Source of the DNA: Raillietiella orientalis
Taxonomy: Eukaryota
Direction of reading: 5' to 3'
Assembly: GCA_036172245.1 (NCBI GenBank)
Contig: JAYWIR010000038.1
Span: 1 to 64,000 of the forward strand
DNA: 64,000 nucleotides
In this document: positions 11,131 to 50,552 of the stretch, one piece after another
Layout: the number at the start of each line of letters is the position of its first letter
Position numbering within the stretch: position 1 is the stretch's first letter
The notes under the pieces: model-generated
Databases searched by the model: none
Seen by the model: only the letters and a program-made list of their open reading frames with translations
What the model was told of the DNA's origin: nothing
Position numbers and translations under genes: made by a program

Positions 11131-11164
11131 CAATGCGATTCCATAAAAAATAGATGCGTAATCC

Positions 11165-18899: not shown

Positions 18900-20480
18900 T
18901 GCTCTCCCTCTTTCTCTCTCTCGTCTCCAGTCCCCATGGTAACAGGCTGTCCAAATTTCATGCGAAACTGTGGCTGCTGCTCTCGCGAAAAATGACTGGT
19001 CCCTGGTTCCTTATTCATAAATGCCTGCTGCCAGCCATCCCTCGAATACACATCTGCGTCGGCAGCCGAAGCAAAGCCTCTGACAGAGGGTTAAACTGCG
19101 AAGAGCCTCAGCAGACAGTGCGTCTGGGAGTGTAGGAATGGAAACAGCGGCGCGCGTGTAAATCTTCCGAGTTGCGTCATAGGTTCTGCAAAGCCAGAGT
19201 AGGGATTCAGACCCGATTTCCACCCGGAGATGCATAGTCCTTCTGTCGGACTTTTGGGTTTCCCTCGAGGCTGTGACCGTGAGACCGACGTGCCTTCACA
19301 GAAAGTTATGGGCTTCGCAAGCTATCCGAAACTCTGCTCCGGAGGCACAGTTGACCGCAATTTCGAAAAGTCACAGACGGAATGGCGATTCTGACCGACT
19401 TCATTGGTGATGCTTGCAGGAGAGGCTGTCTCGGCTCCAAGAAACCTCGCTCGCGGCAGGGGGCAAGGCAACGCTGGGGCGCAGGCGCAAAGTGGAGCGA
19501 CCAGATAGCGTTTCCGACACCGGCACGTCCTCCTTCGCCACCCGTAACGGGCATACGCGCAGGAAGATCCGTTCGCCAAAAGGTGAGGTCACGAAAGAGT
19601 TTCCACTTGACCGTAGCAAGGCGTTGGCTCCAGGTCGGACAACGGAAATCTATGGAAAACCTATTCCCCTCTCAATTCCGCAGGGGTCGCGGAGTAGGCC
19701 CTTTATGAGGAGCGCTGTGGAGCGCGGATAGAAGGCACGGTAGAGAAACGAGAACGATCGTCACCATGGTGAGGGAGGGAGGGATAAGAAATCAGTACCG
19801 GTAGCGCCGCTTGTTATGCACCTTATGCAAGGTAGCCGCGAGCTCCTTTTTTTGCATCCCATCGGAACGCCTATTTTGACAGAGGGGGCTCGTTGCCAGG
19901 GGAGTGGCTTTCCTGAAGCTGCGCTCTCCGTCCACTGTGCTGCATGCAGCAATGATGGTGCTCAGGCCTCAGAGCGCTCCTGTTTTGTCGCTATCAATTG
20001 ATTCTGACGTAGTTTTCGAGGATGGAAAGAGCTGTGGGAATACGTGACAAAAGTATGTTCAAAGTGACGTTAGGCACTGTAAGGGAAACAAGGGATTCCG
20101 CTTCCAGACTCCATGAGAAAGTTTCCGTCGAAGGTGGGAATGAAAGACCATGCGGTCAATGATGACAGGTGAACCGCATTTCCTACACGAGACGACGGCC
20201 TCGAAGGCACGAAATTAAAGCTGGCAGATGTGGTGTCTACCCGCGCGCGAAATCCACAGGCGCGTATTCGGTTGCCAGGCTGTAGCGTGGTTGCTGCCTC
20301 GCAATTGCGACCTCACGAAGGCTCCAATGTTGCCACCGTGGTAGATCGACGATTCTTTGAGAAAACAGGAGCAGCAAGTGGATCTCCTGGTTCCCCGCAG
20401 AACCCGACGTCCGGTGGCGGTGGCACCAGCATCAGCAACTTGAACTCTGACGCGGATTTCATGCGTACCGTTGGTCACCT
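18900..20480 (-). pseudogene. Decayed LINE ORF2 relic
   Basis: Endonuclease-like THEIRV..RRSTCCSCFLKE at 20350-20478. Bases 20230-20340 resemble 36594-36705 at DNA level. GNSFVTSPF..LRVCP and NAIWS..CLAPCRERG match the post-RT region of ORF2. Confidence 0.5.
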
Positions 20481-22204
20481 GGGTTTGTACGGTTTCCTAG
20501 AAGGAAATGGTGGGTGGCGAAAAGAATGGCACCCGTGCAATTACTGTCACCTTTCTAGTCTTAAAGGCGTCTTCTCTACGGAAGGAGATGAGAGGTTAAC
20601 AATCGACACCTCGGCCCGATGGTCCCATGGTGTTTGCAGTGCTCAGCGTCGTTCCTTGCTCTGGTGCTGCTTATTCTCAAACAGACGATGGAGCTCGCGA
20701 TTATTCCTCTGTGGAGGGAGGAGCATTGAAAGAGCGTTAGTGTATCAAATCAGCACTTAGAGGGACGTTAGCATTTGAATAGCTTCTGCTATTGCATATG
20801 TGGAAGAGCCGTCCATAGGGATGTCATCTGCTGGCAGACCTATACTGTGATGGCGGAGGAGTGCTGTTTGTATTTGGGATAAAGGGCATAGCTCTCCTTG
20901 TGTTTGGTACATATTCTCGTGACATGCTGGCAGTGGGAAGGTAGACAGTCAGCACCAAGTGAGGTGGCACTTCGTGAACCCATTCTGCTCTGCGTGCTGA
21001 GCTTGGACACTTTGCAGCGCAGTCTGCTCCGGCGCAGCTGGTATAGCCTGTTGAGCCTCATGTCGCATTTCGGCTTCATTGGCACTTTGTCCAGTGATGA
21101 CTGGAATGCAATCAAAGCTGGGGATTCGAGGAGTCATCCGCCTGCTCCGTTGCTTTTTTCGTTCGACGTAGCGCACGAAAACGGTGCCGGCTGCGGACTC
21201 GGCGCAACCTGGATTATCAGGTCTTGCCCGTGAGGAGGAGAAGGGCACGTTACGGTCAGCACAGAGTCATGGGGGCTGTCTGCATGGTCTAGGCAGGGGC
21301 AGCTGTCCGTTCGGCGCCGGGCTGTCGTGTGCCAACAGCTCAATGTCAGCCTGGGGTAATGAGGATAGTCGTACCACAGACTCAGCTCTGAGGCGCGGAT
21401 CACCCATATATATCGCAGCAATGGAGGAAAGCACTGGGAGGTAGGAGCTCGAGTCCGCCTGTGTGACATGCGCGGATGCCCCCAACAGAAGCAGGGGAAA
21501 GTATTCATCCAGGAGGGAACGTGCAGGCGGTCTGGTGATGGGCTGCCGACACGGGGTCTACCATGATGGGCGCCTTCCACGCGTGCTGGGCGCACATCGC
21601 GAGCTTATGCTGGCTGAGAGACTTAATGCACTTCGGGTGCAGAGGGTCTCCTCCACTGGCTGGTCCGCTTTCTTCGTGGCATGCTCAGTGTCGGCGTCCT
21701 CCAGACATCCATCTGTGTCGTGCAGAGGTGGGTGGCGGGGAGTCACCGGATGAGGACTATTAGCGATTGATGAGTCCTCCATAATGTCCTGCAGAGCTTC
21801 GCAGGCTCCGCCTTTGGAGTCGGTGTTTGCATGCCTCCACCTGAAAAGCTGCTTTAAGAGGTGAGGTCTATCAAATGATGCACGGCATTGCGAGCAACGG
21901 GCACGTGGTGCAGGGAGGATGGGGGGCCATGTGACCGGCAGAAATGAGGAGAGAAGGAATTTCAACGCTTAACATTAGACATGATGTGCTAATGTTAATG
22001 ATAAGGTTAATGCCAAGGTTAATCAGGATCTTGGCAAAAATTTTAAAACATGTTTTAGCCAAAGTAGCATTCGTACTTCTCAACGAAAAGATCATGTATC
22101 GTACCTCAGCCTATTTTCTACTATTGTACAACAACTAGAGAAGCGTATATCCTTGAAAATCCAGGAAGAAAATAACCCGGTCAATCCCTGATAGAATAAT
22201 AAAA

Positions 22205-22486
22205 AACTTCTTTTGCCTCATCTGCATTCGTTTTGGCACCAAAACTTCCTTTATGCGCAGCCTGACCACCAATTCGCCTTTCACCTTTTGGCTTTTTCTG
22301 TTTCGTTTCGAGCTGGGAATTGACGAGTCGTTGAGTTTAAACTTAGTCTTTCCTTCAATTTAGGGTTTTCGATCCTCGGAGCTTTGTTTTTTGCTTCTAA
22401 CCTTTCTACTTCTACTTTCAGCCTTTTCGTTTTCGCTCCTAATTCTTCTACTTTTTACTGTCGCAAAGTTCGAAAAAGCCAACCAT
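22205..22486 (-). pseudogene. IS66-family transposase (TnpC) N-terminal fragment
   Basis: GAGGTGGT precedes the ATG at 22486. Frameshifted translation: MVGFFELC / VEELGAKTKRLKVEVERLEAKNKAPRIENPKLKERLSLNS / SSIPSSK / KPKGERRIGGQAAHKGSFGAKTNADE. This matches the IS66 coiled coil + NSS.P.S + GGQ.GH.G signature. Confidence 0.8.
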
Positions 22487-22559
22487 ACCACCTCACATTT
22501 TCCCCAGGATTGCCTTTTCAGATCACCCTGGCTGGCTGCCTCGCTTTGTCACTTTGCTT

Positions 22560-22720
22560 TCAAGAAACTCCTCCGATCAATGCTTCTTTTTCTATAATGG
22601 AAAAGTTTATTCCTCGTTTGATAGACTCCGTCCGTCCTGGGCTGAACGGATACCGTGGAAAGGGAAAACTTCACTCTTCGACTTTTTCGTCGTTGGCTTT
22701 GATTTGAAGCGCAGATATTT
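22560..22720 (-). pseudogene. Possible bacterial GNAT (RimJ/RimL-type) acetyltransferase fragment
   Basis: ALQIKANDEKVEE*SFPFPRYP...GINFSIIEKEALIGGV resembles the AN..V....P.PY / FAI.....LIG pattern. The match is weak. Confidence 0.35.
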
Positions 22721-22809
22721 GGCTAATTCATGCGCAGACAGCAAGATAAACGCCTTGTGCAAGCTTTTTTCCGTTCTTTTCTACATGCACACAGAGGGAT
22801 CACCAAAAA

Positions 22810-23085
22810 CTGCTGATGTATTGCCATTTTCAATGCAGAGGTTACCAGAGGTTGCAGGAGCAGCTTTGCAGCATTACTTGCACGAGTTGCATTTCCAGTT
22901 GTTCCCAAGTTTACATCTTTGGCCCAATACAGGTCCGCAATTCAATTTTGTTGTACTCCGTTCTTTACAAGTGTATTTTTCCTGCCAGTTATTCCTTCTC
23001 CATCAAATGGCCTTGATTCTCTGCCCCCTGGTAGCGATGGGTCATCAATGATGTTGATTTTATCCTTGAATATCTGAGTATTGGT
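22810..23085 (-). pseudogene. pmbA: PmbA/TldE metalloprotease-family fragment of bacterial type
   Basis: QIFKDKINIIDDPSLPGGRESRPFDGEGITGRKNTLVKNGVQQN*IADLYWAKDVNLGTTGNATRASNAA / PATSGNLCIENGNTS carries the hallmark DDP..S.PFD.EG...NG, TGNA and N..IENG motifs. One stop and one frameshift. Confidence 0.85.
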
Positions 23086-25429
23086 AATCAGAGTATTTGT
23101 CTTCGTAGACGATGCATTTGGGACCAAAGTATCGAAGAGCATCGATGACCACCGCGTGGATGCGGGCTAGGTGCCCTTGAGATTCCTGTTCAGGTTCTTA
23201 GTGAGGGCCGCTGTGCACACGAGCGCGCAGTCTGGAATGGGACAACGGCACTCCCGTGGAGGGTCGCAGTCAATAGATAGTTGCGCATCACTCGATAGAA
23301 AGGTCGGTGGGTGGAACATGTTGGTGGTAATGACGGTGGTAAAGCGACGAAGGTGGACACGATGGAGCTCACCGAACGTTGTTTTCAAAGTAACCAATGG
23401 GACTTCCACACGGCGAGGTACAGCCAATCAGCATGCTGCGCTATCGAGATGCCAATAGGCTTGAATCGTCGGGACGCTAGTTTTCCCACGCGGGAAAAAA
23501 AAAAAAAAAAATCTCGGTGTGATGGTGGTATCAGCCACCGGAGCCACCGATCTCACACACAGTTCGTGCAGCAAATAGGCACACTCAAGTACAAGTGGTC
23601 GCGGGGTGCATTTCTTCCAATAACCCTCCCACCTTCCTGTCATGCATACTTTCTGGCTCCCGCCACAGCAGCATACACGCGGGGGACGATTGTGGTCCAC
23701 AATTACCACGTCCTTGGTCACATTTCTTCCAAACTTGGCACGCTGGTGGAGGATGTCGAAAGGAAACAGTGGACGAAAAATCATTCGAGACACACACACA
23801 GACACACAAAAAAAAAAATGGACAATTCGAAAACTGAAGGCTCGCGGGAGCTTCGTAGGAGCTCGCGGAAACGTACGGCAATACGGTTACCTGGAAGAGG
23901 AAGCGAAGATCACCTGCATCCGCCGCCATTTGATGGGCGGTTAGGAACAGCGGACCCCGAGGGATCTTGCCCCCTCCTTCCCTCTTTTTTTTTGTCCTTA
24001 TTCCTCGTCCCCATTCGCTCCGTAACTCACCTGATACCCTTTGTTTTAGCGACGGTGCGCACGGAACGAAATCAAAGATCGCTCCTTCATCCCACCACCT
24101 TTCTTTTTTTTGTTGTCCTCGATTTCCTCCCGTTCCAGACGATTCATTATCCCTCCCTGCGAGTCCATGGACTCTCTTGTTGAGCTTCCTTCGTCTTCGG
24201 CCGGGTACTGCGTGCCCAACTGCATTTATTTTTCACAGAATAAATTCCCGAGCGTGACGTGGATGAAAAATTTCCACCTCCGCCTGCTGTTGGGTGCTCA
24301 CTGTGCTGAGAGACGACCAACGATCTATGCGAGTAACCTAGAATCGAGTATTCTTCAGTGAATTGTCAAAAACCAGTGGCGACCAGCTTGGGACCACACG
24401 AAGTCCATTTTTTTTTTTGCTTTGGCACCCAACGTGGTGGCCAGAGCTTTCACAATTTCTTCTTATGACGCAGCCGGGTAACTGTTGAAGATCACGTAAG
24501 CCGTGATACGCTATTTTGTGCACGGCACTCCCTCCCCTGTTTCTATGGCGAGGTTGGAAAGAGAGAAGCAAACGAGCATCTCTCGGAGACAAGTCATCTG
24601 GCGATTCCAGTGGCAAGAGCTCCCCTGTCCGCAGAAAAGAGCCTCACCAAGAAACCGCTATCAAAGCGGAGAAGAATGGGGCGGATGCCCACATGTGGAC
24701 GCCGATGGAGACTTTCGGATGCTGCATCGATCTGCTGTGGCGCTGGTACAGAGGACGACCGGTTTTTTTGCTGCCTATTGGTTTCCTGGAGGCACTTCGT
24801 AAGCGTACTTATGGAGAAGAGGCTGCATCCTGGCGATCATCTTCCTGGATCTTTGCAGGTGTTTTGGTAGTTCCTGGTACTGAATGTAACCTCTCTTCCC
24901 GACGTCGGTGGCAGTCATGAAAGTGATGGAATGATGGATCGCCAATTGGGGGCTTTTTCTCTCCTTCCTATGTGTGCTGCACCTCCGTAGGCAGCAATCA
25001 CTCATGCGGGGAACCGCTCGTGAGGGTCCATGGTAATTGCTTCTCTTCCGGAGGTGTCTTCGCTTCCACCCTGCTTGCTTGTGCAGGACTCCCCCGGAAA
25101 GCAGGGGATGGATCGTGGAACGCGGCGCCTGCATTCGCCCTCTTCCGGGAACCGAGCCAGGCAAGGGAGGACGCGGATAGCGCAGCGTGCGAGCGCCGCT
25201 CGTGGATTGGCACTGGCTGTGGGAAGCGTGTTGAACATCCAGCTGAAGGGGCGGTCCTTGAGGGAGCACGCGCTAGGAGGAGCTCCCACTGTTTAACTGG
25301 GCTGGGGCGCGATGAAGCTATGGGGAAGACCATCTTGGGTGTGCAGGCTTCTCACGCGGAAGATGGGAACAGTCCATCCAGCAGCTTTATTGTGGGAATG
25401 TTGGAAATGCTGATCCTGGTGGGCGTGTG

Positions 25430-27508
25430 GAGTCAACGATCCTTTCATCATCCGCGTCTAGGGCGACTCTCCGGAGCAGGCTGTCTCACGACTCCTGCTT
25501 CCGGAAGGTGCTCCAGCAATCGGGGAGGAGGAGAAAAGGAACCTCGACGAGCCTTTCACGATGGGCGAGATCATCTCGGCCATCGGAAAGCTCAAGAGGC
25601 GCAAGGCTCCAGGGGAGGACGGCCTGCCCGCGGAGTTTTACCAAACTTTCGCGGCAGAGCTTACTCCCCTGGTACATCAGCTCACCTTGCTGATCCGCGA
25701 AACAGGTGACGTTCCCACCTCGTTTCGTTCAGCAAAGGTGCGGCTCCTCCCTGAGGGAGGAGACCTTAGGAGCATGAACAACTGGCGTCCCATCACAATA
25801 GTGAATGCGGACGCCAAGTTGCTAGCCAAGCTGTGGGAGAGCGCCTGGGACGGGTCGCCAACATCTTCATCAGCTCGGAACAGACATATGCTGTTCCCGG
25901 GCGAAGTATGGAGGCGAACCTGTTCCACGCTTCCACATGGTTAGAGCTCCAACAAGGAAGGAGCATAATAAGCAACCGGAATTCCGATGCGTCCGTCGGT
26001 GGGGGACGAGATGGTCGAAAGGGGAGAAGAGCCCTCGCGGTTGCAGTCGATTTGCATAAAGCATTCCATTGCGTCGACCAGAATCTCCTCTTGGAGCTTC
26101 TGGAACGCTTGGGCTTCCCGGCCTCTTTGCTGGCCTACCTGCGCTCCAGCTGGCGCGACGCGCTTATTAATGTCTTTTTTAGTGGATCCACCGTGTACGG
26201 CGTACCGGTGCGACGCGGCATACGGCAAGAAGACAGCCTCAGCCCCTTGCTCTTCAGCGCCTATTTCGAATTGGTGCTGAGAGCATACAGGGAGACTCTG
26301 GCGCACCTGCCGTGCGATTGTCCCGGTACGCCTGCGGTTTCGGCGTACGCGGACGATCTTCTGCTGCTGCTGCCTATGTCCACCCCGGCCTCGGCGGTCG
26401 AGGACTTCTTCGACCTGCTGAGTTGTGGAACAGGACTGACGGTGAACAGGGCGAAGTCGTCCGTAATGCCAGTCGGAGCGGCGTGGGCAGGGCAGCAGGA
26501 CTGGGTCCGTTTGGGGATCCCCACGGTGAGGTACTTCAAGTACCTTGGTGTGCCGTTGGGGGATTACTCCCCTGCGGAAGAGTGGTCCGGCTGCCTTCAG
26601 AAGGCTCAGGCGGCGATCGGCCCGTTCCAGGACGGCAGGTTCTTCCTGCATGAACGGGCCGCGGCGTGGAACGCGTTCGCGGCCCCCCTCCTTCGCCCCT
26701 TGCTTTTTGTTTGCCCCCCCTCGGCGGAGTCAAAGAAGAGGACGAAGGACGTCCTGAGGATCGCACTTTGGGGCAGAGGGAGGCCCCGAGTCCGTCTTTC
26801 GGACTTGTGCGCTCCTCGTCCGGATGGTGGTCTGGGCCTCCTGACTTTGGAGCGGCTGGAGCTACAGCTCCAGTTCCGAGTTGTCGCCTTTATGGCAGAA
26901 AATTGGTGCACCCCTTGGTGCCTCCCTGCACGTCTCCTCGTCGAGCGGGCCACCGGCAATGAGAGACTCTCGTCCTACTTTGCACTCCGAAGCCCCATCT
27001 GCCACTGCGGACTTCAACTTCGGAGGGCGGCCAAGCTCGTGAAGAACAACTCGGCGCGGATCCTCGTACGCCCCGCGAACGGTCCTGCCTGGCTGCAGGA
27101 AACCGTGCGAACGTGGGCGATGATTCAGGAGCAGAGCCCGCAACACGAGCGAATAGCTCTGTTCGGGCCTCACGCCCACCGCACGCTCCGAGAAATCTTC
27201 GAGGATCCCCGAAGGAGAACGTGGGCTCAAAGAACCTCCCTTGCTGCGGTACTGCCTACCCTACGGGAACATCTGGGCAGCGACGTCGCGGCACAATGGG
27301 AGGTTACTGTCAAGATCGCCAGCATGGCAAAGAAGATCGGGGATTGGAGAACGGGTCAGCTCACCAACGCTGCGACCCCGAGGACCACCCCAAATGGACT
27401 CTTGCGCTGGGGAGAGCTACTGGATGTTCCAGAGGAACATCTCGAGTGGCCCCCGGTGCTCATGGACTCACGCACCCTCCTAATGAAGTGGCAACAGTCG
27501 GCACTGCT
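25430..27508 (+). mobile_element. Tx1/L1-like copy A, left part (5'-truncated ORF2, RT)
   Basis: KAPGEDGLPAEF, WRPITIVNADAK, a frameshift near 25835, GIRQEDSLSP, YADD and FKYLGVPL. It stops at WQQSALL, where copy B is inserted. Confidence 0.92.
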
Positions 27509-27755
27509 TTTACATCCGGGTGCGCCGGGGCGTTTATTTCTTTAATAAAGAATAAACAAGCAAGTGTAGGGCTATCGCCCCTACAGTGTTCAGAACATGT
27601 TCTTCTGAACTCGCCGAGTGGGCAGCATGCAGGCTCCCAAGGTCGACTCGGCAGCGGAGGGGGAAGGGACAAATAGAAAAAAAGCAAAAAGAAAACACTA
27701 TTTACAAAGGCAGGGAGGGGTTGGGGAAGGGATCACGTTCCGCTGGAGACGTCCT

Positions 27756-30700
27756 CTACATCCTTTGCAGGATGCCGGCAAGTTCAAACTGCATGTATCC
27801 CAAATGGGTCCATCTGGCTGCCGTCCTCAGGAAGCGCAGGGCGTAGCACAAGATGTCCCTATCGTTCGGTCCACCAGTGGCGGTGCTCCAAGCCGCTACA
27901 ATCCCTCGTAGGCAGCAGAGGGCTGCAAGGGCTGCGGCAGGCGAAATGGCGTCGCGCACGAAGAGGCGCTTTAAAACGTCTCTGGGAGCGTGCAAGGGTG
28001 CACCAACGGCTGTTGCAAAGCGCAACCACAGGGGCCGGAGGGCAACACAGTCAAGGAGCAGGTGCGGGAGAGTTCCTCGTTCCCCGCACCTGACACAGTT
28101 TGGGTCCACAACCCCCCTCGTCCAATGAGAGCGTCGGGCGTTGCTGGGGAGTCCCCAGTGCAACACCAGAAACGCCGACTCCTGCCACTGTAGGGGGAGG
28201 GCCCGAGTATTCCTCAGCACTGGGGGCCACTCGAGTTCATCCCGCGGGATGCACAGCAGCTCGCCCCAGCGCAACAGTCCTCGCGGTGGGGAACTTGGGA
28301 TCGCGGCATCAGCAAGCTGACCCGTGGTCCAACCACCTTGTTCTTTCTCAGTGTCCCTGATCGTACACCGGACCTCCCACATGGCCGGCTGGCTACTGCC
28401 CAGATGTTCCTTGAGGTGGGACAGAGCTGTGGCAAGGGAGGTCCTCTCAGCCCACGCACTCAAGGCGGGCTGCACGATGAGGTCCTGCAGCGAGCGGCTC
28501 TTATGATAGGAGTGCAGCATTCGCTGCCGCAACTCCGGGCTCGCTTCCTCGATCTGGGCCCACGTGCGAAGGCTTTCCTGCAACCAGGAAGTGCCGTTCG
28601 CGGGCCGGCAGGAGATCCAGGTGTTCTTCCTGGTCAGCTTCGCCACTCGCCGGAGAGCCAGTCCGCAATGGAACAGGTACCGGCGTTTGCGGCGCGCTAG
28701 GAAGGTAGACAGTCCCGCGCAGCCGCCGACTCGCTGAACCAGGCATCGTGCAGGCTCGCACCAGCTGGCGCTCCACAACTTCGCCACTAGGGCGATTGTT
28801 CGGAACTGCAGCTGCAGTTCGAGGCGCTCCAGCGTGAGGAGGCCAAGGCCCCCATCGCGACGAGGGGCGCACAAGTCCTTCCAACGCGCGCGGGGCCTTC
28901 CTCTGCCCCAGATGGCGATTCTGAGGAGGTCCTTTGTACGTGTTCTCACACCACGGGGTGGGGGACAAACAAAAAGCAAGGAGCGAAACAGGGGGGCCAC
29001 GAAAGTGTTCCACAGCACGGCCCGTTCCGGCAAGAAGAACTTGCCATCCAGGAACGGGCCGATCGCTCTCTCGGCCTTTTGGAGGCAGCAAGACCATTGT
29101 TCCGCTGGGGAGTAGTCCCCCAACGGCACACCGAGGTACTTAAGGTGCCGTACCGCGGGGATCCCCAAGCGAGACCAGTCTAGCTGCCCTGCCCACGAGG
29201 AACCGACTGCAACAACGGACGACTTTGCTCTGTTCACCTCCAGTCCTGTCCCGCGACGCAGCAGCTCGAAAAAGTTTTCGACCGCCGACGCCGGGGTGGA
29301 CATGGGGAGCAGCAGCAGAAGATCGTCCGCATACGCCGCCAAGGCCGGTGTACCTGGGCACACGCGCGGCAGGCGACCAAGAGTCTCCCTGAATGCCCTC
29401 AGCACCAACTCGAAGTAGGTGCTGAAGAGCAAGGGGCTCAAGCTATCACCCTGCCGTATCCCGCGGCGCACCGGCACACCGACCACGTTCCTTCCCCTGA
29501 AAGAAATGTTGGTCAGCGCGTCGCGCCAGCAAGAGCGCAGAAAGGCCAATAAGGAGGCCGGGAAGCCCAAGCGCTCCAGAAGCTCCAGCAGGAGCTCCTG
29601 GTCGACACTGTCGAATGCTTTTCGCAAATCGACAGCGACCGCGAGGGCCCCTTCTCTCTCCCGACTATCCCGCGAACCACCAGCGGACGTCCCGCAAATC
29701 GGGCTGCCGACCTTGTTCCCTCCATTCATTCTGGTTCTTTGAAGTTCGAACCAGGTGTTCGCGAAGAGCAGGTTGGCGTCCATGCTTCGCCCGGGAACAG
29801 CGTAGGTCTGCTCCGGGCTGATGAAGCTTTCCGCCACCCGCCCCATTCGCTCCGACCATAGCTTCGCAACCAGCTTGGCGTCCGCGTTCAGTACAGTAAT
29901 CGGACGCCAATTGCTGAGATTCCGTAAGTCTCCTCCTTTCGGTAGGAGACGCATACGTGCCGTTCGGAAGGAGGCGGGAACGTCTCGTGTCTCCCGGATC
30001 AGCAGCGTTAGCCGCTGCACCAGGGGAGCCAGCTCCGCCGCGAAGCACTGAAAAAACTCCGCGGGCAGGCCGTCTTCCCCCGGTGACTTCCGCCTTTTGA
30101 GCTTCCCGATTGCGGTGGTGATTTCACCCATCGTGAAAGGCTCGTCCAGGCGTACTCTCTCTTCTTCCCCGATCGCCGGGGCACCGTCCGGAAGCAAAAA
30201 TTGGGAAAATTCCCGGTCCGGAGGCACCCTGGTGTACAGAAAAGAATAATAGCCGTGCACTAGGCTACTCACCTCTGCCGGGGCCGAGTGCTCTTGGCCT
30301 TCGTCGTCCAGCAGGCTGGGCGACCCCGATTGCCAGGCCTGCCGCTCGGCCCCGGCTTTAAATTCCGCCAGTCTTCGGACGTCTGGTGTTCGGGAGTAAC
30401 GACGGGCCTGCAGGTAAGCCCTATCGTTCCGAACACCTTCTCCAAATCCTTTCGGGAGACGGTCCATGGGGAACTGTTGGCAGAACTCTCGCACCGAGAC
30501 TTTCAAATGGTCCCAGTCGTCGAGCGTCTGCAGGCTGAAACCTCGCAAGAACGCGCGGAGGTGTTCCGCTGCGCCTGGCTTGGTCAGCCAGTCCCCCGGT
30601 AGACGCCACGCCTGCGCGGGGGGCCCCCTGCGCGCGGGCGAATGACGAGTTCCACACGGGAGTGGTCGGAGACTGCGGACTGTATCTTACCTCGCCTGCC

Positions 30701-31321
30701 CACGCGACAGCGCAGGTGATCGTCGAGGAAAACGTGGTCCACGCTCCGTTCCATCCCGGTATCCCCGGCTAACAAGTTGGATGCGTGCACCGCAGCGCAC
30801 ATCTCGTTAACCGGGGTGGCCTCTGTCCTCGCCGCACCTGATAGCAGGCGAATATTAAAATCGCCGGCTATCAGGTGCGCCGTGCGCGCGCCTGCCTCCG
30901 ACAGCCAGTCGCGCTTGAACGCACGGAAAAACGCCGTCCGTTCCACGCGCGCGTGACCGCCGCTCGGCGCGTACACGTTCGTGACGACGAGATTGATGGA
31001 GTCGGACCACCTGAAGGTGATTTGCCCGACCCGACCTGCCTCATCGAAACGAACTTTCCGCACCGCGCGTTGTAAGGCAGGCTTCAGAAGGAAAGCGACC
31101 CCGCGCGTACGGCGGTGGCCGCATCGCCACATAAGCTGACCACCTGCTATCCGTTCGATCTCCCGCGCATGTTCTGCGGAAATCTCATGGATCTCCTGCA
31201 GCAGCACGAGGTCGAAGGCTTGCAAGGTGGCAGCTATGTCTCGTCTCCTGCCGTCATCGCAAAGCCCGTTGACGTTCCAGCTGGCGATGCGTATTTGACG
31301 GCAGGTGGCGAGTCCCGGCAT
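27756..31321 (-). CDS. ORF2p of copy B (AP endonuclease + reverse transcriptase + C-terminal Cys/His motif); one frameshift near 30595
   Basis: Endonuclease motifs SWNVNG, LLQE, NVYAP, GDFN, VDH and SDH. RT motifs WRPI, DLRKAFDSVD, GIRQGDSLSP, YADD and KYLGV. C-terminal CVRCGERGTLPHLLLDC. The two ORF-track frames join at a G5 run. Confidence 0.92.
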
Positions 31322-32922
31322 TACTGCTGGGAAAGTGATGCTGCGTCTCCCGCCTCACCTTGGGGCGGGACGCCGGCTTTCTCCTGTGCGGTGGGGGGCG
31401 GCTCGACGACCCCCTCCGTCTCCATCGGCTCCGTCTCGACCGATCGTGGGAGTTCAGGACTCGTGTCCATCTCTCCCACGCTCGCCGCACCCTCGTTTCC
31501 GGAGGAGTCCCCTTCCTCGGAGGAGACGATCCTCCTCGGGTTACGGATTTTCCTTCCGGTCTTCCTCGGGGGTGCAGATGCGGATGGTGCGTGTCCGGTC
31601 TCCGGGTCCGAGTCCGAGGTCCCGGTCCCCCTCCTCTCGGCCGGACGTCGAACGGCCTTCTTCCCGACCTTTGCGGGAGGCTGCTGACTGGCGGCGAGCT
31701 CGTCGGCGGCTTTTGCAAAGCCCGCGTCATCGCGCCTCTCCCCCTCGCCGCAGCCCTCGGACGCTGTTTGCACAGCGACGGGGCTGTCAGCGTTGTTGCA
31801 CACGGCAACGTCCTGTTCGCACGGCACTTCGGCGTCTGCAAGGCGCTCCAGTACGATCGTGCATTTTTTCAGTCCCTGCTTTTTCGCGAGTTTCGCGGTT
31901 TTTGCAGGGACTTTGTTTTTATTATTTACGTCCTTTTTTTCTTTCTTTTTCTTTTGACTGACCTTTTGCCAGCCAGGCTCTTCTCCTTCCACCTCGGTTG
32001 CCTGCGTTTCTGCAGACGGGGTGGTCGGGATGCCCTTTTTGGCTGGCTCCGGGTCAACCGTATTTTCAGACGGCGGCCTGGTCTTGCCAGGCTTCTTGCT
32101 CGCGTTCGTGCCGCTCACGGCAGCAGCCGGCGCGCGCGAAGTCTTTTTGGGGCACACTTCTTCCGTGTGCCCGATTGCCTCGCACTTGCGGCAGGTGATG
32201 TTGGGGCAGCGTTTCTTCACGTGCCCCGTACCATCACAAAACGCACAGTATTTGGGTTTCCCCAGATACCAGATGTCGACAGAATCTCCGTCGACTACTA
32301 GTTTATGGGGAACCCCAATGTCCTTATTCACAGTCACACGTGCCGCGGCGAGTCCGCTCAGGAGTCCGTCATAAGTACGGAACCTGTTGGGCTTCAGCCA
32401 CAGCGCGTGTACGGTGCCGAATTTGCTGAGTTCAGCCCTAACGGCGCTCGGTGACATCCGCACGGTGATTCCACGGAGGTGGACAACTATTGAGTTGTCC
32501 ACCGGGACAGGGAAGATCTGGCGGCCCTCGACCCTGACGGGGGTTCGCAGCAGTCTTTGCGCCAACCCTGCTTCTTTGCAGGTCACCTCGACATGCTGTC
32601 CCCCGCTGCGGATGGAGAGACCCAGCAGATCCTCCTTGTTAACGTTCAAACGGTGGAGCTCCTTCTCGAAGGAGCGCGCCACACGGTCATCAAACACCCG
32701 GCCTACCTTATACAGCAGACTCGGGTTGTAGTTGTAGGCCTTGTAGGCCTGGGCCTCGGCGATGGCCGCTGCAGATGGCGCGGCGACCGCGGCGCTGTAG
32801 TCCCTCGCCGGCGCGGGGGACGAAGCTTTCGGGGCAGGTGCCACTATCTCCCTGGGTACGGGGGACGTTCGCCCGGCCCCCACCCCACATTCACTAGTGG
32901 CGGGATCAGGCATTTCTGCCAT
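31321..32922 (-). CDS. ORF1p of copy B (533 aa; two CCHC zinc knuckles, disordered charged C-terminus)
   Basis: ATG at 32922 (alternative 32913). Knuckles CAFCDGTGHVKKRC and CRKCEAIGHTEEVC. Uninterrupted to the TAA at 31321-31323. Confidence 0.92.
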   Translation of the reverse strand: MAEMPDPATSECGVGAGRTSPVPREIVAPAPKASSPAPARDYSAAVAAPSAAAIAEAQAYKAYNYNPSLLYKVGRVFDDRVARSFEKELHRLNVNKEDLLGLSIRSGGQHVEVTCKEAGLAQRLLRTPVRVEGRQIFPVPVDNSIVVHLRGITVRMSPSAVRAELSKFGTVHALWLKPNRFRTYDGLLSGLAAARVTVNKDIGVPHKLVVDGDSVDIWYLGKPKYCAFCDGTGHVKKRCPNITCRKCEAIGHTEEVCPKKTSRAPAAAVSGTNASKKPGKTRPPSENTVDPEPAKKGIPTTPSAETQATEVEGEEPGWQKVSQKKKKEKKDVNNKNKVPAKTAKLAKKQGLKKCTIVLERLADAEVPCEQDVAVCNNADSPVAVQTASEGCGEGERRDDAGFAKAADELAASQQPPAKVGKKAVRRPAERRGTGTSDSDPETGHAPSASAPPRKTGRKIRNPRRIVSSEEGDSSGNEGAASVGEMDTSPELPRSVETEPMETEGVVEPPPTAQEKAGVPPQGEAGDAASLSQQ

Positions 32923-33006
32923 CCCCCGACCACTGATGCACCGCACTACACCAATAAAGTCGAGCGAGTCAGGAGCGCGCAGAAAACACGTCTGACCGTC
33001 GGAGCG

Positions 33007-33655
33007 GCTGGTGTTGCATTGGGGGCTTCCTTGCAACGCCCGCCGACACCACTGGACGCGGGGGGGTGTCAACCCTAATTGTGTCAGGTGCGGGGAGAGG
33101 GAATACCTCCCCCACCTGTTAGTGGATTGTGTTGCCCTCCGTCCCGTGTGGGAACGCTTTGCCGCAGCCCTGGGGATCCCCGGAGGCAACCCCAGAGACG
33201 CTTTGCGCCCCCTCTTCGTCCGTGACGCCCTGCCTCCAGCGGCCTCGCTTGCAGCCCTGTGCTGCCTACGTGGGATCGTCGTGGCATGGAGCAAAGCGAC
33301 GGGAGGATCCAGCGACAGGAATGCCAACGTGTATGCCGACCGTTTCCTCAGGGTGGCGACGCGATGGCCCCATCTGGAACCGCACACGCAGCAACAGCTT
33401 GCCGGCATCCTCCAGAGGATGACGGACCCTCCCAGCAGACTGTGATCCCTTCCCTCTCCCTCCCCGATTTTTGTTTATTTTTTTGTTTTCTTTTTGTTTC
33501 GTTCCCCCTCCCCTCTGCTGCCGAGGTCGACCGCACCGGTCTGCGCACCGGTAGCCCGGCAAGCTATATCTTTCCAGGGCGTGGCTGGACTACTGGTCCA
33601 GTCACAGATTATATAGGTTTATTCGTGAGAATAAACGTCCCGGCGCACCCGGGTT
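33007..33655 (+). mobile_element. Copy A, right part (ORF2 C-terminus, 3'UTR, terminal hairpin)
   Basis: LVLHWGLPCNARR..CVRCGEREYLPHLLVDC continues exactly from WQQSAL at 27508. Stop at 33445; AATAAACGTCCCGGCGCACCCGGGT at 33630-33654. Confidence 0.92.
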
Positions 33656-34905: not shown

Positions 34906-34909
34906 TTCA

Positions 34910-39875: not shown

Positions 39876-42800
39876 TCACGGGCAACGAAGGGCGCCCGAC
39901 CCCCTATGTGATCCGCGCCCGGAGCGGGCATCGGCTTCCAGAGAGAGGGAACGGAAACCGTGCGAGCGCCTGAGGGCGTCTTTAATGAACCTGCCGTCCC
40001 GGACGCCGTGCAGGAGTAGCCGGAGCTTGCCGACGTGTCCGGTGGAGGAGGTGTTGCTTGACTGCGGGATGAGGATGGGGTGAGGCCGAGCACGCGCGCG
40101 GGGGAGGGGGAACTTCTTACCACCAACTTCAGATGGGCTTTCCAGGAGCCACGCGGGTCCTCTCCCCAGGTTAGCACCGACAGGAAGGTCCATTCCTGGA
40201 AGCCGATGGTCGAGCTGTCGAACGGTCTGGGCTCGAGCAGATTGACAACGGTGCCTGAGGAGGCGAACGGCGATAAGTGGGTGGCCAGGGACGACGGTGC
40301 CCTTACCGGACGGCGAGGTCAGCGAGACGGAGAGGTCGCCGCGGCGAGAGCACTCAACGCTGAGCGTCAGAAGGACGTGCTCCAGCGAACGGATGCTGCA
40401 CGAAGTGGGTCGGAAGTCTGCCGTTGCCTCGAGATCCGGCCGGAGCTCGGAGCCGCTCCTGGGAAAGACGCGTATTGAGGGAAGCGAGAGGGAAGGAAGA
40501 GAAGAGGTAGGAAGAAGAAAAAAAAGGCAAAAAAAGAGGAAGTAAAAGAGGAGGAATAGGAAGGAGAGGAGGTGTTGTGTCTTTACCTGGACAGCTCTCC
40601 CAGGGAGCACGTGACCCTCTCCGGGACTGTGGTCCAGCGTTCGGCGAGTGAGACCATCCTCTCAGCGTCCATAAGCCCGAAACCGAAGGCGTGGTGAATG
40701 CTCAGGCCGGCGCCGTTGACCTGCCAGCCTTCGGGGTCCAGCGGTCGGGGATTTGCCGACAGCGCTACAAGGTACTGCACGTCCCTCCAGGTGAGGGTGG
40801 GGCTGGGGAGAGACCGCGCATCGCTGGAAAGAGAGTGGCGCGCGTTGCGAACGCCACCTACTTGACCTCGAGCGCCAAAGCGATAATGCCGGCGCCCAGA
40901 GGGGCTGCTGCCGACGTTCCTCCGTGCTGCCGGCTGCATCCACCGCCCACGGTCGTCGACACCTGCGTGGAGGGACGCCCGGTTGCCCCGACGACGCACC
41001 CGTTGCCCTCGACTCACTATCTTTCCTTGTCCGAGGACATCGCTTGAGTAGACGGCTGCCATGATGGCGGCGCACCGTTCGGCGTACCAGGGGGACCGCC
41101 CATCCTGGGCTGCCGCCGCCACGGCGACAGTGCGGACGTCGGACACGTAGCCGTCGCAGCCGCAGTGGTCTCCCTGTGCGCCCCCGTTGCCGGAGGCCCA
41201 CACGAACACGGCGCCGCGGCCCGCGCGACCCCGCATCACGGCCCGGTCGAGCGACCGCAGCGCCAGCTCGCCCGGACCCTCCACCGTGGCGCCGTCGTCC
41301 GCAGGCCCCCAGGAGGCCACCAGCACGTCAGCGACCAGCGACCGCGCGCCCAGGCCGTCGCCCTCGGTGGCGTCCGTAACTCTTCCGTCGAGCATGCGCA
41401 CCCCTGGAGAAAGAGCCGCTTGAGGGCATCGCATGCGGAAGGGAGCTCGACGCCCACGCACCTCCGATTCGGCTACCGAAGGCGACGCCCACGCCGCACA
41501 CGCCGTTCCCAGCTGCCATGGAGATCTCCCCGGCACACAGCGTCCCGTGAGAGCCCCTTCCGGGCATGGAGAACTCGGGGGAGGGATCGAGGTCCTGGCC
41601 GTTGACGTCGTAGCTCAGAGATGGGTCCTGCGGGGCATAAAACACTGGAGCAGGGGGAGGGAGGACCCTTACTCACGTAGTTGCCCCTGAGATCCTCGTG
41701 AGTCCACTCCAGACCGTCGTCCAGCACCACGATTCGCACTCCCCAGCCGGTGACCCCCTGACGGTATACGGGCAGCACGCGCAGGTCGCCGGTGGGGACG
41801 CGACCCCGACTTTCCCACGTCGTCCCGCTAATCTGGAAGAGAGGGCGCGAGGTTCCTGAGACCGCACCCCCGCGGAACTCACCCATGCTAGGATGGATGG
41901 CACCGGCGGCTTCTGCGCCCCCTGCAGGACGGACTCGAGTGACCCCACTGCCCGAGGGAGGTCTCTCCTCCTCCCTTCCCGCGTGCCTCTTACCAGGTAC
42001 CACTGCTCCGCCCAGAAGTAGTCGTTGAAGTGGGTCGTGGTTCCGGCGCCTCCTAGGAGGACCCCTCGGAGGGAGCGCCTCTTCTCAAACTGCTGCTCTG
42101 CCCAGGTCACCTGGCGGGGGAAGGCACGCGGGTGTCCCTTGGACCGGGCTCCTGAACGCCCTGCCGGCTCACCCTTCTGTCTCTGTGCAGGTTGGCGGTC
42201 AGGTGCTCCGCACTCTCGTGGGACCCCTCGGGGTGATCGGCCTTGCGGAAGACGGAGATTCCCGGAAGTCCCTCCAGCTGGAAGCACCGGCGCCATCTTG
42301 AGACCGCAGCCCAGCCTCGCGCGCTGTGTCCGGGCTGTCCCCCGGGCAGTCCAGTTAAGCAGGGGGCGAGAAGGAGGAGTCGCTTTCGCGCTGCGCCGGA
42401 GCGCCACCGCAGGGCACGCCCTGGGGCCGTGCCCAGCGTAGCAACGCACCGACGAAACGCTGCGGGCCAGACTGGCGCGAGCGGAGGCCAGTTGCATGCG
42501 CAACGTCTTATGCAGCAGCCTTCATGTGTGCGCGGAGCGGCGCGGACTGCAGGGCAGCTGCCGCAGGCGGGAGGGAAGCTTACAATCTGCGCATGCGCGG
42601 AAGTGGCATCGGTTTTGCGGTGGACGGCAGAGCCTTTCGGGAGGCGGCGCGGGCTCTGGGCAGGACGCACTCCGCTGCAGAGCCCCTTCGTTGTCGTGGG
42701 CACCTTCCCCCGTCCGGAAGAACGCCCACGCAGAGTTCCGTTAACCCCCGGAGAGTGGCAGCGGTCGATGCGAGGCACCGCCAGCCACTAAGGCCGGTTG

Positions 42801-46051: not shown

Positions 46052-49000
46052 TCCCTCCCGTCCGCGGACGCAGTCTCCCTCCCTCCGCGGGGAACGCGTC
46101 GCCGCGCCTCCCGCGCTCGCGCAGGCGCCGCAGTCCGGCCGCTGTCGAGCGGAGAGTCACTTGAGCTCCGGGAAGGCGTGGCTCCACGCCCGCAGGCGGG
46201 TGGGGATTCAAAGGACTCTTTCCCGAAGGCCGGGAGGTGGATCCGGGGCAGCCGCGGAGCCACCGATCCTCCTAGACCCATCTGCCAGTTGGTTTCGGAA
46301 CCTGAAGCCGAGGCAGGGACGAGCTCTGCTCTCCGCGAGACCCTGACCCCTCAGGGCGAACGCTCCACCTTCCCGTTTTGGAACCTCCGGAAGAGGATCA
46401 GCTTGCTGGGATCCTAGGACGAGGGAGCGCGGTACTAGCGGATAGCGGCACTGCGAGAAGCACCGTCGAGGGCGGAATCATCACCTTCCGCGGGAGCCTA
46501 TGAGAGTTCGCACTGCTTCGAGCGCGGTTAGGTGGTGGCCCGCGCCGCCTTGACGGCAATTGGGAGGCGCCCACGCCGGTTGCCGAGGAACCCGCATGAC
46601 TCGCGTTCCCGGCGACGTCCGTCCTTCTTGGCATCGCGAGAGCTCTGGCGCCCTCCAGCAGCAGACCCGGAGAGAGGAACCTCCCTCCTGCGCTCTTCCT
46701 TCCCCCTGGCTGCCCCAGCAGTCCGCACCACCACCACCTCCTCGAGTCATTCCGACTCCCTGAAGCCGCCCCAGGGAAAGTGGCACTGCGAGGTGACCAC
46801 GGTGGTATTTGAGCCGTTGGGGTCGCTCTTCCCAGAAAGGAGACGTGACCTAAGCGGCGGACCTTGAAATAGGGATCGAGCCAGAACGATCTTCCAAGAG
46901 GAAGCTGAAGGAGACGAGGGAGAGATGACCCGGAAAAGCAGCAAGGCTGCATTGTCATGGAGGCAGCCTAGAGGTCGGCCTCGTCGTCAGAGCCGCGCAT
47001 CGAAACGAGGCTGCTGTAACTACTCTATCTGCCAGGGGGGATGACCCTCGTCTCAGATTCCTGGTTGGGAAGACGAGGAGGGAATGCTGCCCTCTGACTC
47101 TGCTGTGCGGTTGGTCGTTGTCCGAGGAGCCGTGGAGATTGCTTGACCGAAGGGGTCGCTCCGAGGCTCCGATGCAGCGCCCTCTTCCAGGAGAAGGAGG
47201 CAGAGACCGGAAGGCATGGAGACAGATCGGAGCATCTCGCTCGGGGAAGGCTGGTCAGCGGTGTAACCAAAGAGCGAAGGCAACAGCGAGCGGAGCGGGG
47301 GTCGCACACTTCAGGGGGTCGCGTTCGCCCAGGAGATGGGGCGAGGCAAGCAGACTAGGAAGAGGAGGAGGTATTAGCGCGACGTCCCCAACGAGCTCCA
47401 AATGGCGTGACCGGGATAGGCGCCCATAGGAACGTAGGACCCTAAGAGAGATGCGAAAGGATCCGGGGTCTGAGAGAGGTGCCTTTCCACATCGGGAGCG
47501 GGAGGACAGTCTCCGTGATCTTCCTCGGCCTGTCTCCAGGCCGCTCTTGAGCTTGGAAACCACCATAGCAGCAGTTTTCAAGCTCAGGAACCTTTCTTGA
47601 ACGTCTGGAATCAACCTTGTTGTCCAAGTGACCCTTGGGGTGATCTCCAGGAGCGTGATGAGCTCAGGGAGGAGGAAGCAAAGGAAAGGCGTTTGGAGAG
47701 GAGGGATGATGGGCTGCTCCCAAAGGTCCTCGAGAGCCGCCCAAGGTCACTTTCATTTCCGTCCTTCCTTTCCGACCGGGTCTCAGGAAGATCAAGCGGA
47801 TGGGGCTGCAACCCCATCTCTTCCTCTCCTCCGAATCATCACCCCACCTTTCTTTTCGTTCCACCAGTCTTCTAATCACGTCCTCCTGACAGTGCAATGA
47901 ATCGGAACTTCTCTATGCACTCTACCTTCAAAAATGGTCCCCATGCAATTAGTAGGCAAACAAGGTGACTGTGGGACGCCCGATAGTGGAACATGCATGC
48001 ACCTTGGATTGCTGTACTTCCTAGTTACCAGGTTTCCTCACTTGAAAAGATGAAGCACGGATTGGAGTCCATTTCCGCTGATGAGCCTTTCCACTGTTCC
48101 ATAGGTGCACGGAAAATGGCAGAGTTATCCAAACTCACGAAGGATATGATCCCATTCTATGGTAGCAAAAAGCAGCGGAAACAACCGAAACTGCATTGTC
48201 GTTGAAATGCGTCGCTGATTTCCATCGATTCGGCAAAAAGAATCAAACGAAGTGTGGAACTCTGGCCGAATGATGGAATCTCTGAACCTAATTTTGGAAT
48301 AACGAATAACCTGAATTTTGGAATAACGAATTCATTTCGTCACTTGAGGCACGTGCGACTTGCTGTAGTGATTGAGCTTCCGCTTCACATGGTTCCCACA
48401 GCAATCTGGTGACAAAATCTCACATCTCAAACTTCTTGTTTCCCAGGATTCCTAGCGAGAGCAACAGAAGGTATTATGATAGTTCTGGGCTTGTACGTAC
48501 GGCTTTGCTCGCTTAGATAATTTGTATGGAGATTACAGCGAATGAAGACACTCATAGAAAAATTGCTCGCGTCACATCTCATTAATTTCTTTCCAAATTA
48601 CCAACAGAAAGTCTTTCTTGTTCTTTCCGATAAAAGGAAAGAGGTGCTCGGAGCTCGAACATGAGAAGAACGCACTACACAGTGGAGCTTGGCAGTACCG
48701 TACACGCCAAGCTAGACACAGACATTTGTGGTTTGTTTTGAAACTGACGGAGTAAGCACGCATTTTTGTGTGTGAGTTTTTGCTAATTAAAAGTTAACAG
48801 TGTAATAGCATTGATGAGTTCAAGTTGAAAACATAACTAATCTTGTTCCCGTTTATTTTCTACAGAAACACCTTCAAAACATTGATGGATTCCCTCGAAA
48901 GAACAGTCTGCCTTCCCTTTTCCTATTTCGAAATCATTTCCTTTTATATCTTCTTTAAATGGAAATAGCTTGCTATGTTCCATGTACAGTGCAATGAATG

Positions 49001-49978
49001 TTACAAACAACTAAACTGAGAGAGTGGGAACACTGCGTCATCACTTGGAAGCTTGCAGGACCATGACGATGGTGCTGCTTTCCAGGTGCTTCATTTCTTC
49101 AGCTCGAAGGTATTGCACTGGAGCAGGCAACAACGCATCATCAAAGCTTTGTAAGTAGGAGAAAAAAAGTGAATAACATGAAGGATAAAACAAGAGCTTT
49201 TCTTTGGATAATCGCTTTATTTCTAACCTTGAATTAAGGCAAGTTTTGATTAGTTTTGATTTGGAACAAGTAATTGTTTCCAAAATTAAAAGTGCGAACG
49301 ATGTCAGAGATCATAAATGTCAGGGTCATAGGAATGTCACTTTCGGCTTGGAAGTGAGCAAAAGCACTATATTGACTCGTATTCGTTGTTCGTTTTTTTA
49401 AGTGTTGCATCGAGTTCAAGTGCCATTGTAAGTTTGCTGAACTCATTTTAAGAGAGTGAAACGTGATGGAGGTAACATTCGAAATCAAACTGCAATAAGG
49501 GATGCTCGCATTGACAAATTCTCGACGGTGCAAATTCATTGTTTATTTCATATAGTGCAGCCGCAAGACATTCGCAAGTTTTTCAATTTGCTAAAGCATG
49601 CATTTTCTCACATATTTCTGCCCATTTGGTTATGTGACGTTGTGTGATAACCTGTGCAGCCAACTCATCTTCCGAGAATATTGGTGCATTCTTATGCATC
49701 GCAGCTGCTGATTCAAACATGACAAAGGCCCATGTATTTTGCATTGCCCATACGCAACCCCAGTGTTCACCCAGTACTGCATAAGAGAATTTGGCAGTAA
49801 TGTTCAGCTTGATAAAGATGGTTAAAATGAGAATATTGTAGTTGGTAGAATGTTGAAAGTTGAAGTTGACTAACATGATTAAATCACAAAAGAAACATGC
49901 AAATGTGCAATATCATGGTTTATGCTGTTTTTATTAGTCATAGTCTGCATTCACAACAGTGACGTTATGTGTTGTTAG

Positions 49979-50552
49979 ATCATGTTGATGATTGGAAACC
50001 TGGCCCCTACCCCAAAACCAAGGAAGAACGAGAAGCTGCAGCACACAAATATGGACTGATTCCCGAAGATTATGAACCACATCCTGATGATGGGACTGGA
50101 AAAGGAGATTACCCTCTTCTGCCAACAGTATCTGGATTTAGAAAGGACAACTTTCACAACTGGGACTTTCTGCGTTGGAAGAGGGATTATAGGGAGCCTG
50201 TACGTGCATGTTTTGCATGCATGCAGTGACTGTCTGGCTACTCCTCCATATAGATCCACCATGACTATGACATAATGGTTGAGGAGCGCCTGGATGTCAG
50301 CAGTTTTGAGGAACATCCTGTATCCTACAACAAAATGTTTTTCTCCTGGATCGGTACCTTTTTGGTGTTCATGGGCCTATGCTGGATTTCAGATAAATAT
50401 GCTTTCTTCCACCCAGTGGTAAGCATGAGCACATTTCCTGCTTTCTTTCTGTATTCTAAATGTGTCCGAACCAGAAGCCAAAGCAGTGGCCTTATAAGGA
50501 ACAAGGCCCCCATTATACCTTTGCACCCAAGGAGGATGGCCTGGCCAGTTAA
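49979..50552 (+). CDS. NDUFB8: NADH dehydrogenase (ubiquinone) 1 beta subcomplex subunit 8; last three coding exons (first exon not located)
   Basis: Exons 49979-50199, 50254-50418 and 50475-50552. WKPGPYPKTKEEREAAAHKYGLIPEDYEPHPDDGTGKGDYP..WD...KRDYREP, a single TM helix and PVKPKQWP..HYTF. Confidence 0.93.

Follow-up and report, generated by a model that had tools for sequence, protein, structure and literature searches.

The presence of Wolbachia DNA in the chromosomes of arthropods and nematodes is amply documented, and sequences of this kind are known as nuclear Wolbachia transfers (nuwts). Large Wolbachia inserts have been reported as fixed in an arthropod chromosome, chromosome 4 of Drosophila ananassae (PMC4299567). 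In Brugia malayi, two adjacent nuwts that derive from different parts of the Wolbachia genome have been described (PMC3849323), and a survey of 22 filarial species clustered nuwts into regions when neighbours lay within 2.5 kb (PMC12693587). The Wolbachia “genomic fossils” reported from Dictyocaulus viviparus are short, frameshifted or interrupted by stops, co-assembled with the host, and about 84.5% identical to living Wolbachia, the closest strains given being filarial and clade F Wolbachia (PMC4046930). Complex or mosaic nuclear copies of mitochondrial and plastid DNA (numts and nupts) comprise several non-contiguous source fragments, and the account in PMC6215612 attributes them to end joining at double-strand breaks. 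Here we describe an AT-rich island of 1.1 kb within a stretch of 64,000 nucleotides from the genome of Raillietiella orientalis (assembly GCA_036172245.1, contig JAYWIR010000038.1, positions 1 to 64,000; hereafter the window). The island is very probably a non-functional, mosaic nuwt, composed of captured Wolbachia fragments that subsequently decayed neutrally.

Attention was first drawn to the island by a model-generated note made from the sequence letters alone (the original prediction), which proposed a Wolbachia- or Rickettsiales-like patchwork carrying fragments of pmbA and of an IS66 transposase. The observations on which it was based are confirmed in part, while its interpretation, comprising a Wolbachia donor, an old integrated transfer and a patchwork of pieces, is supported by the analysis presented below.

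Extent and composition of the island

The G+C content (GC) of most 1-kb bins of the window lies between 0.46 and 0.69, falling to 0.412 in the bin 22001-23000. The island extends from 21958 to 23082 with a GC of 0.408, compared with 0.588 in the 500 bp to its left and 0.524 in the 500 bp to its right, so that the AT-rich island in GC-richer DNA originally predicted is indeed present. Within it, GC is 0.36 over 22100-22204, and 0.44 in the second of the two gaps (22559-22658).

Four separate pieces of the island, A to D (Table 1), each match Wolbachia genomes. In a comparison set of 60 genomes of the genus, 21930-22830 is matched in 44, the matches forming three separate blocks (A, B and C) that were refined by local alignment, and D matches pmbA in 59, with a best identity of 83%. 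Against single genomes of 1-1.7 Mb, the best E-values are 4.8e-76 for D, 6.6e-41 for B, 1e-31 for C and 2e-15 for A. When the whole window was searched against five Wolbachia genomes, all matches of the chunk 19001-39000 were confined to 21958-23082, and the remaining ~62.9 kb (1-20000, 19001-39000 minus the island, 38001-58000 and 57001-64000) gave none at E <= 0.001. Plasmid and phage collections, searched with the island by blastn in distant mode, also gave no match, and a comparison by sequence with other DNA windows turned up nothing resembling the island.

The sequence between the pieces is less easily assigned. The region of gap 1 (22085-22225) found a match in one of the 60 genus genomes (18 bp, E 0.009), and that of gap 2 (22525-22668) in two (19-21 bp, E 0.004-0.008), both at chance level. 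Judged by position, the first ~10-25 bases of gap 2 beside B may be the left end of the IS66 element, and the rest of this gap may be donor intergenic DNA or another shard.

Table 1. Pieces of the Wolbachia-derived island, the sequence between them, and host features elsewhere in the window
Feature	Position	Strand	Basis
Piece A: 3' end of a Wolbachia hypothetical gene and downstream sequence	21958..22143 (end ~22143)	+	DNA matches, local alignment
Gap 1: AT-rich spacer, 61 bp	22144..22204		between A and B
Piece B: 5' leader and first ~103 codons of an IS66-family transposase	22205..22558	-	DNA and protein matches to a Wolbachia element
Gap 2: spacer, 100 bp	22559..22658		between B and C
Piece C: last 42 codons, stop and ~18 bp downstream of a ProP-like major facilitator superfamily (MFS) transporter gene	22659..22799	-	DNA match, tblastn
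Linker, 14 bp (filler or decayed ends)	22800..22813		between the ends of the C and D alignments
Piece D: internal pmbA/tldE fragment, 269 bp	22814..23082, weak extension possibly to 23101	-	Pfam, blastn, alignment, tree
Long interspersed nuclear element (LINE) open reading frame, GC-rich	25908..27545	+	
LINE open reading frames, GC-rich	27756..33408	-	
283-residue open reading frame, stretch GC 0.63-0.69	40583..41434	-	weak Peptidase_S8 (subtilase) match, E 7.2e-06
Second AT-rich zone, GC 0.38-0.41	48001..50000		
Neuron navigator/sickie homologue, single open exon of 418 residues	50754..52010	-	AAA domain and NAV1-type lid

Piece D, a fragment of pmbA

The open reading frame (ORF) 22942-23166 on the minus strand matches Pfam PmbA_TldD_3rd (E 3.8e-13, 49.5 bits against a cutoff of 22) over profile positions 41-86 of 220, in agreement with the PmbA/TldE fragment of the original prediction, and the next ORF in the same frame extends the match weakly to position 113. 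An intact three-domain PmbA/TldE protein (PF19289 and its partner domains) is not present, as D covers only profile positions 41-113 in the C-terminal domain; D is a homologous fragment of PmbA/TldE, not a gene. The NCBIfam PmbA and TldD models score it far under their full-length cutoffs, which is expected of a fragment. Translated from the minus strand, D reads DDPSLPGGRESRPFDGEG...TTGNATRASNAA with one in-frame TGA, and a three-frame reading of the same strand shows DDPSLPGGRESRPFDGEGITGRKNTLVKNGVQQN, a stop, and then IADLYWAKDVNLGTTGNATRASNAA. It corresponds to nucleotides ~790-1053 of the 1332 of pmbA, cut from the middle of the gene, and its lesions are a stop created by TGG -> TGA and a frameshift of +5 bp.

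A protein query of D, read through the TGA as X, was searched against 5.8 billion proteins, only longer proteins being considered, and returned 89 candidates, 19 of them at E <= 0.001. The 13 best are 65-81% identical, and comprise nine named Wolbachia, one “Rickettsiales bacterium” metagenome-assembled genome (MAG), two unnamed records and one from Glossina austeni; the remaining six drop to 42-46% identity. Among UniRef proteins, a 763-residue protein of Glossina austeni (P0013) carries PF00231 alongside the three PmbA domains and shares 68% identity with the PmbA fragment of D; it looks like Wolbachia-derived sequence annotated within the tsetse genome.

At the DNA level, D was compared with pmbA loci taken from species-representative genomes, 26 of them Wolbachia-type and four Ehrlichia, plus more distant ones. 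Over 22814-23082, blastn matched the island to 25 of these Wolbachia-type loci with an identity of 68-83%, and to none of the Ehrlichia loci. In a MAFFT alignment the best Wolbachia identity is 84.8% over 264 columns, with five gap columns, compared with 55-57% for Ehrlichia pmbA.

Piece B, the start of an IS66 transposase gene

Piece B is 67-74% identical, over 300-354 bp, to a multi-copy Wolbachia element of ~1.49 kb. A full copy of this element (L091:409-1794, minus strand) encodes 462 residues that score 284 bits against NF033517, IS66 family transposase (cutoff 180), and match Pfam DDE_Tnp_IS66 at 1.4e-32. B begins 10-25 bp inside the left end of the Wolbachia copies and ends before the zinc finger and the DDE domain; its minus strand reads first as a coiled coil and then, in another frame, as QKKPKGERRIGGQAAHKGSF. 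At the protein level, 33 of 67 and 19 of 33 residues in two frames are identical to Wolbachia IS66. The frameshifted IS66 TnpC N-terminus with GAGGTGG before its ATG, as originally reported, stands: this motif aligns with the leaders of Wolbachia IS66 copies, where the corresponding letters are GTGAGGTAATATGG or GTGAGGTAATGTGG. The reading frame has since been disabled, having lost 7 and 13 bp in two deletions and acquired a stop and a frameshift.

What B represents is homology to the N-terminal region of the transposase, established through its DNA match to an element whose full copy scores against NF033517. An IS66 insertion sequence, defined by a DDE_Tnp_IS66 catalytic domain in an element with two ends, is not present, the window holding only the leader and ~103 N-terminal codons. 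Pfam gave no direct IS66 match among the 12 ORFs of the island, for which matches were considered at E <= 1. A search of longer proteins with a 57-residue piece of B gave 100 candidates, none at E <= 0.01, the piece being a low-information coiled coil; with this protein search empty, B is assigned to Wolbachia because of the genus and order searches and the origin of its neighbouring pieces.

The ~1.49-kb element (L091, L089, L094 and other loci, in genomes G048, G059 and G054) is abundant in some Wolbachia genomes, and in one of them (G048) 17 matches are listed, all but one to piece B. Many of its copies are broken into ORFs of 100-150 residues.

Pieces A and C

Piece A is 70-93% identical to Wolbachia DNA (G002, G003, G004, G015, G033 and others), in alignments that start at 21958 and end at 22126-22143, and lacks about 25 bp relative to Wolbachia. 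Its homologous ORF (L080:1531-2070, minus strand) encodes a hypothetical protein of 179 residues ending in ...STLNIRHD...GFWQKLKNMF, to which neither Pfam nor NCBIfam assigns a family. The stretch ANVNDKVNAK, described in the original prediction as ankyrin-like, belongs to piece A and aligns to this hypothetical gene, which is without a known domain; no ankyrin family was found at E <= 1 in the 12 ORFs. The GNAT-like scrap proposed alongside it fared no better, with no acetyltransferase family appearing among the same ORFs at that threshold.

Piece C, the 3' end of the MFS transporter gene at 22659-22799, had no place in the original prediction. It matches one site per locus in the 15 aligned Wolbachia loci, at 73-82% DNA identity, its homologous ORF (L079:263-1636, 457 residues) matches Sugar_tr/MFS_1 and TIGR00883, and tblastn finds 25 of 42 residues identical. 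One internal stop and a 7-bp deletion interrupt it. The string QGVYLAVCA..., tried as a continuation of PmbA, was ruled out as such, and is the C-terminus of the MFS protein.

A mosaic of pieces that lie far apart in Wolbachia genomes

The island is a mosaic of at least four short pieces, of about 140-350 bp each, from distant sites of the Wolbachia genome, with 14-100 bp between them. Both C and D were found in 20 genomes, on different contigs in five and on the same contig in 15, where they lie 40.3-1179 kb apart by coordinates. The claim that the gene pieces are non-adjacent in Wolbachia is thus upheld by synteny, with at least 40 kb between C and D in all 15. In the island, D, cut from mid-gene, is separated by 14 bp from codon ~415 of the MFS gene; because gene-internal and gene-terminal shards are here only 14 bp apart, no working bacterial genome could have had this arrangement. 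An IS66 match within the 1.5-kb flanks was found at none of the 15 loci carrying C and at none of the five carrying A. C, gap 2 and B might nevertheless be a single donor stretch, in which an IS66 copy lay downstream of the MFS gene, and the mosaic would then be reduced to three pieces.

The main alternative is that the island is the remnant of one large contiguous Wolbachia insert, of tens to hundreds of kb, in which later deletions brought distant fragments together. Large inserts are known, for example those described from Drosophila ananassae (PMC4299567), several small deletions in the pieces show that deletion has been active, and a contiguous stretch of C, gap 2 and B would suit this model. 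It is also consistent with one genome (G001), in which A, C and D have the same orientation and the order seen in the window, at about 1101, 905 and 838 kb. However, A, C and D lie on one contig in nine genomes, share an orientation in three of these, and have the order of the window as well only in G001; one collinear genome in nine is about the chance rate of 1 in 8. Even in G001, a span exceeding 260 kb would need to be reduced to 1.1 kb with four pieces of 140-350 bp surviving, and no other Wolbachia-like DNA was found by the five-genome search in the remaining 62.9 kb of the window. The deletion model is therefore unlikely, although it retains some weight. Whether the mosaic is instead original, with dying Wolbachia DNA shredded to ~100-350 bp and ligated randomly as filler into germline breaks, and this locus being one of many such scars, we regard as evenly balanced.

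Decay within the host chromosome

Among the 11 closest Wolbachia, 189 columns of the D alignment show no variation; the window departs from the shared letter at 22 of them, and these private substitutions run from AT to GC in 16 cases versus 3 from GC to AT. They fall on codon positions 1, 2 and 3 in the numbers 7, 10 and 5, whereas variation among the 11 Wolbachia is distributed as 21, 10 and 44. The same bias is seen in C, with 12 changes from AT to GC versus 4 from GC to AT at 105 conserved columns. The GC of D is 0.42, compared with 0.28-0.37 in the homologous stretches of 30 bacterial rows (26 Wolbachia-type and four Ehrlichia), and in the pmbA tree its end branch is 0.14, versus a median of 0.05.

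As the private substitutions are both biased towards GC and indifferent to codon position, the pieces decayed inside the host and are not contamination; that this decay is visible as a rise in GC is due to the host being GC-rich. Neutral evolution in a GC-rich nucleus would be expected to leave such a pattern, which contamination by a living symbiont would hardly explain. Together with the stops, frameshifts, deletions and gene-internal junctions, it sets the island apart from any living bacterial genome, and speaks for the old integrated transfer, rather than contamination, that had originally been proposed.

Reads bearing on the island come from one public sequencing run (X1), which covers a share of 0.09 of the stretch with three short records. 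Two records of 151 letters, both with 0 differences, were placed at 22987-23137 and 23138-23288. The former crosses the right junction. For a junction at 23082 it comprises 96 letters of Wolbachia and 55 of host, and for one at 23101 the figures are 115 and 36. The original prediction had named long reads spanning both junctions as a check; in this run the right junction is crossed by one short record, at a depth of 2, and the left junction is uncovered.

An assembly artefact or contamination, in which reads of a live Wolbachia were misjoined to host DNA, is very improbable. Such an origin would draw on the fact that only one public run contains any of the stretch, at low depth and with the left junction and the interior of the island uncovered. 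A live bacterium, however, could not carry these shards joined together with their stops and frameshifts, the private substitutions are GC-biased and blind to codon position, and the identity to the best of 60 Wolbachia genomes is only 83%; the record across the right junction, moreover, joins the two sides without a difference.

Identity of the donor

An IQ-TREE phylogeny of the pmbA fragment, comprising the window sequence, 26 Wolbachia-type and four Ehrlichia rows, nests D in the Wolbachia clade, separate from Ehrlichia, with support of 100/100, and also in the 22-row inner group of that clade. Within it, D is the weakly supported sister (91/53) of a clade (L001-L006) whose record titles name the Wolbachia of Penenirmus, Tettigetta and Mansonella ozzardi, and three “Rickettsiales bacterium” MAGs. 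The named hosts of this clade we take to belong to supergroup F.

At the level of the order, an even sample of 301 genomes was searched, with only two candidates per genome being scored. The island is matched in 18, of which 12 are strong (E 1e-37 to 1e-75) and are all also members of the Wolbachia genus set, while the other six match over 35-105 bp at E 6e-7 to 5.5e-4, at best with 70% over 105 bp. The strong matches in this sample are to Wolbachia only, in keeping with the original prediction. That four pieces match Wolbachia, with D nested in its clade at 100/100 and its best protein matches at 65-81%, establishes the predicted Wolbachia origin. Another Rickettsiales bacterium, or an unrelated one, is scarcely credible as the donor, for although the best DNA identity is just 83%, the sister relation of D to one Wolbachia clade is weak and the IS66 piece is more divergent at 67-74%, D lies within both the clade and its inner group, Ehrlichia pmbA falls far below the 84.8% reached by Wolbachia, and genomes of the order outside the genus set give nothing better than the 105-bp match.

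Host context

Both flanks of the island are GC-rich and Wolbachia-free in the assembly, and lie in the same window as LINE-type ORFs (RVT_1 8.4e-23, Exo_endo_phos 9.8e-16) and an exon of a neuron navigator/sickie homologue. The presence of reverse transcriptase and endonuclease ORFs of LINE type, together with this exon, identifies the host as a bilaterian animal, in keeping with the animal genome assumed in the original prediction. Its placement of the island inside eukaryotic repeats, on the other hand, was not borne out: the flanks have no second copy within the window and no tandem repeat, none of the 40 flank ORFs scanned matches Pfam, and the nearest LINE ORF starts at 25908.

The LINE region contains a reverse transcriptase ORF of 903 residues, an endonuclease ORF of 245 residues, an ORF of 695 residues without a family, and a second reverse transcriptase fragment on the other strand. 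The best named relatives of the navigator/sickie exon are 43-55% identical and come from insects, molluscs, chelicerates, echinoderms and vertebrates, none of them close, and the nearest protein-atlas cluster is eukaryotic, “commonest Chordata”. Beside this exon lies the second AT-rich zone of the window, which had no Wolbachia match in five genomes; rather than a further transfer, it is probably intronic or intergenic DNA of the host. A further ORF, with weak similarity to subtilases, lies in one of the GC-rich stretches (Table 1).

Origin and significance

The course of events that would best account for the nuwt begins with DNA of a Wolbachia symbiont of the host lineage, which would have entered the germline nucleus and become fixed in a chromosome. 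Most likely, end joining would have linked fragments of degraded bacterial DNA to one another and sealed them into a double-strand break of the chromosome. The insert would then have evolved neutrally, accumulating stops, frameshifts and small deletions, while its base composition drifted towards that of the GC-rich host. Capture at a chromosome break, the joining of the pieces at the moment of insertion, and the old age of the insert are features that we infer; the first of these is reasonable, whereas end joining as the mechanism is suggested only by analogy with complex numts and nupts.

Several points weigh against the island being a captured mosaic of Wolbachia fragments. Around 175 bp, in the two gaps and the linker, are not accounted for by any of the four pieces, and piece B has only a modest identity to Wolbachia IS66 copies, besides the empty search with its 57-residue protein. 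The pieces could have been closer together in the actual donor than in the 60 genomes searched, and the collinear, equally oriented A, C and D of G001 are what the deletion model also predicts. The record over the right junction, at a depth of 2, may share a sample with the assembly and is weak support, while the lack of reads over the left junction and the interior in run X1 reflects sparse cover and shows nothing either way.

If the island is a nuwt as proposed, the host lineage has carried, or still carries, Wolbachia, and the private divergence of D (22 of 189 otherwise invariant sites) could help to date that infection. From the GC-biased decay of the island, the neutral mutation or fixation bias of the host can be read cleanly. 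Should the mosaic be original, the host genome would record a shattered, possibly extinct Wolbachia strain with an IS66 lineage of its own, and this record would perhaps include an IS66 insertion site downstream of the MFS gene, in the stretch from C through gap 2 to B. There is also a practical warning for annotation, namely that the PmbA-like and transposase-like ORFs are not genes, and that the locus should not be removed as contamination. The island itself is a further example of the well-known transfer of symbiont DNA to hosts, without function, and since Wolbachia DNA in such chromosomes is already so well documented, a single locus adds little to the general picture.

Comparison with known systems

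The island resembles the nuwts of filarial nematodes, as portrayed in PMC3849323 and PMC12693587, in consisting of short Wolbachia gene fragments that evolve neutrally in a host chromosome, but differs from them in having a GC-rich host and in packing at least four pieces, one of them the start of an IS66 transposase gene, into 1.1 kb. The fossils of Dictyocaulus viviparus, in the terms of PMC4046930, are comparable, the pmbA of the island being likewise short, disabled and 83-85% identical to Wolbachia, with a weak affinity to a clade whose named hosts point to supergroup F; they form a genome-wide set, however, whereas the island is a single locus. Unlike the Drosophila ananassae inserts, given in PMC4299567 as near-complete, duplicated copies of the Wolbachia genome, the island amounts to 1.1 kb of shards. 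In its architecture of joined, non-contiguous fragments it is like the mosaic numts and nupts of PMC6215612, from which it differs in that its source is the genome of a bacterial symbiont rather than that of an organelle.

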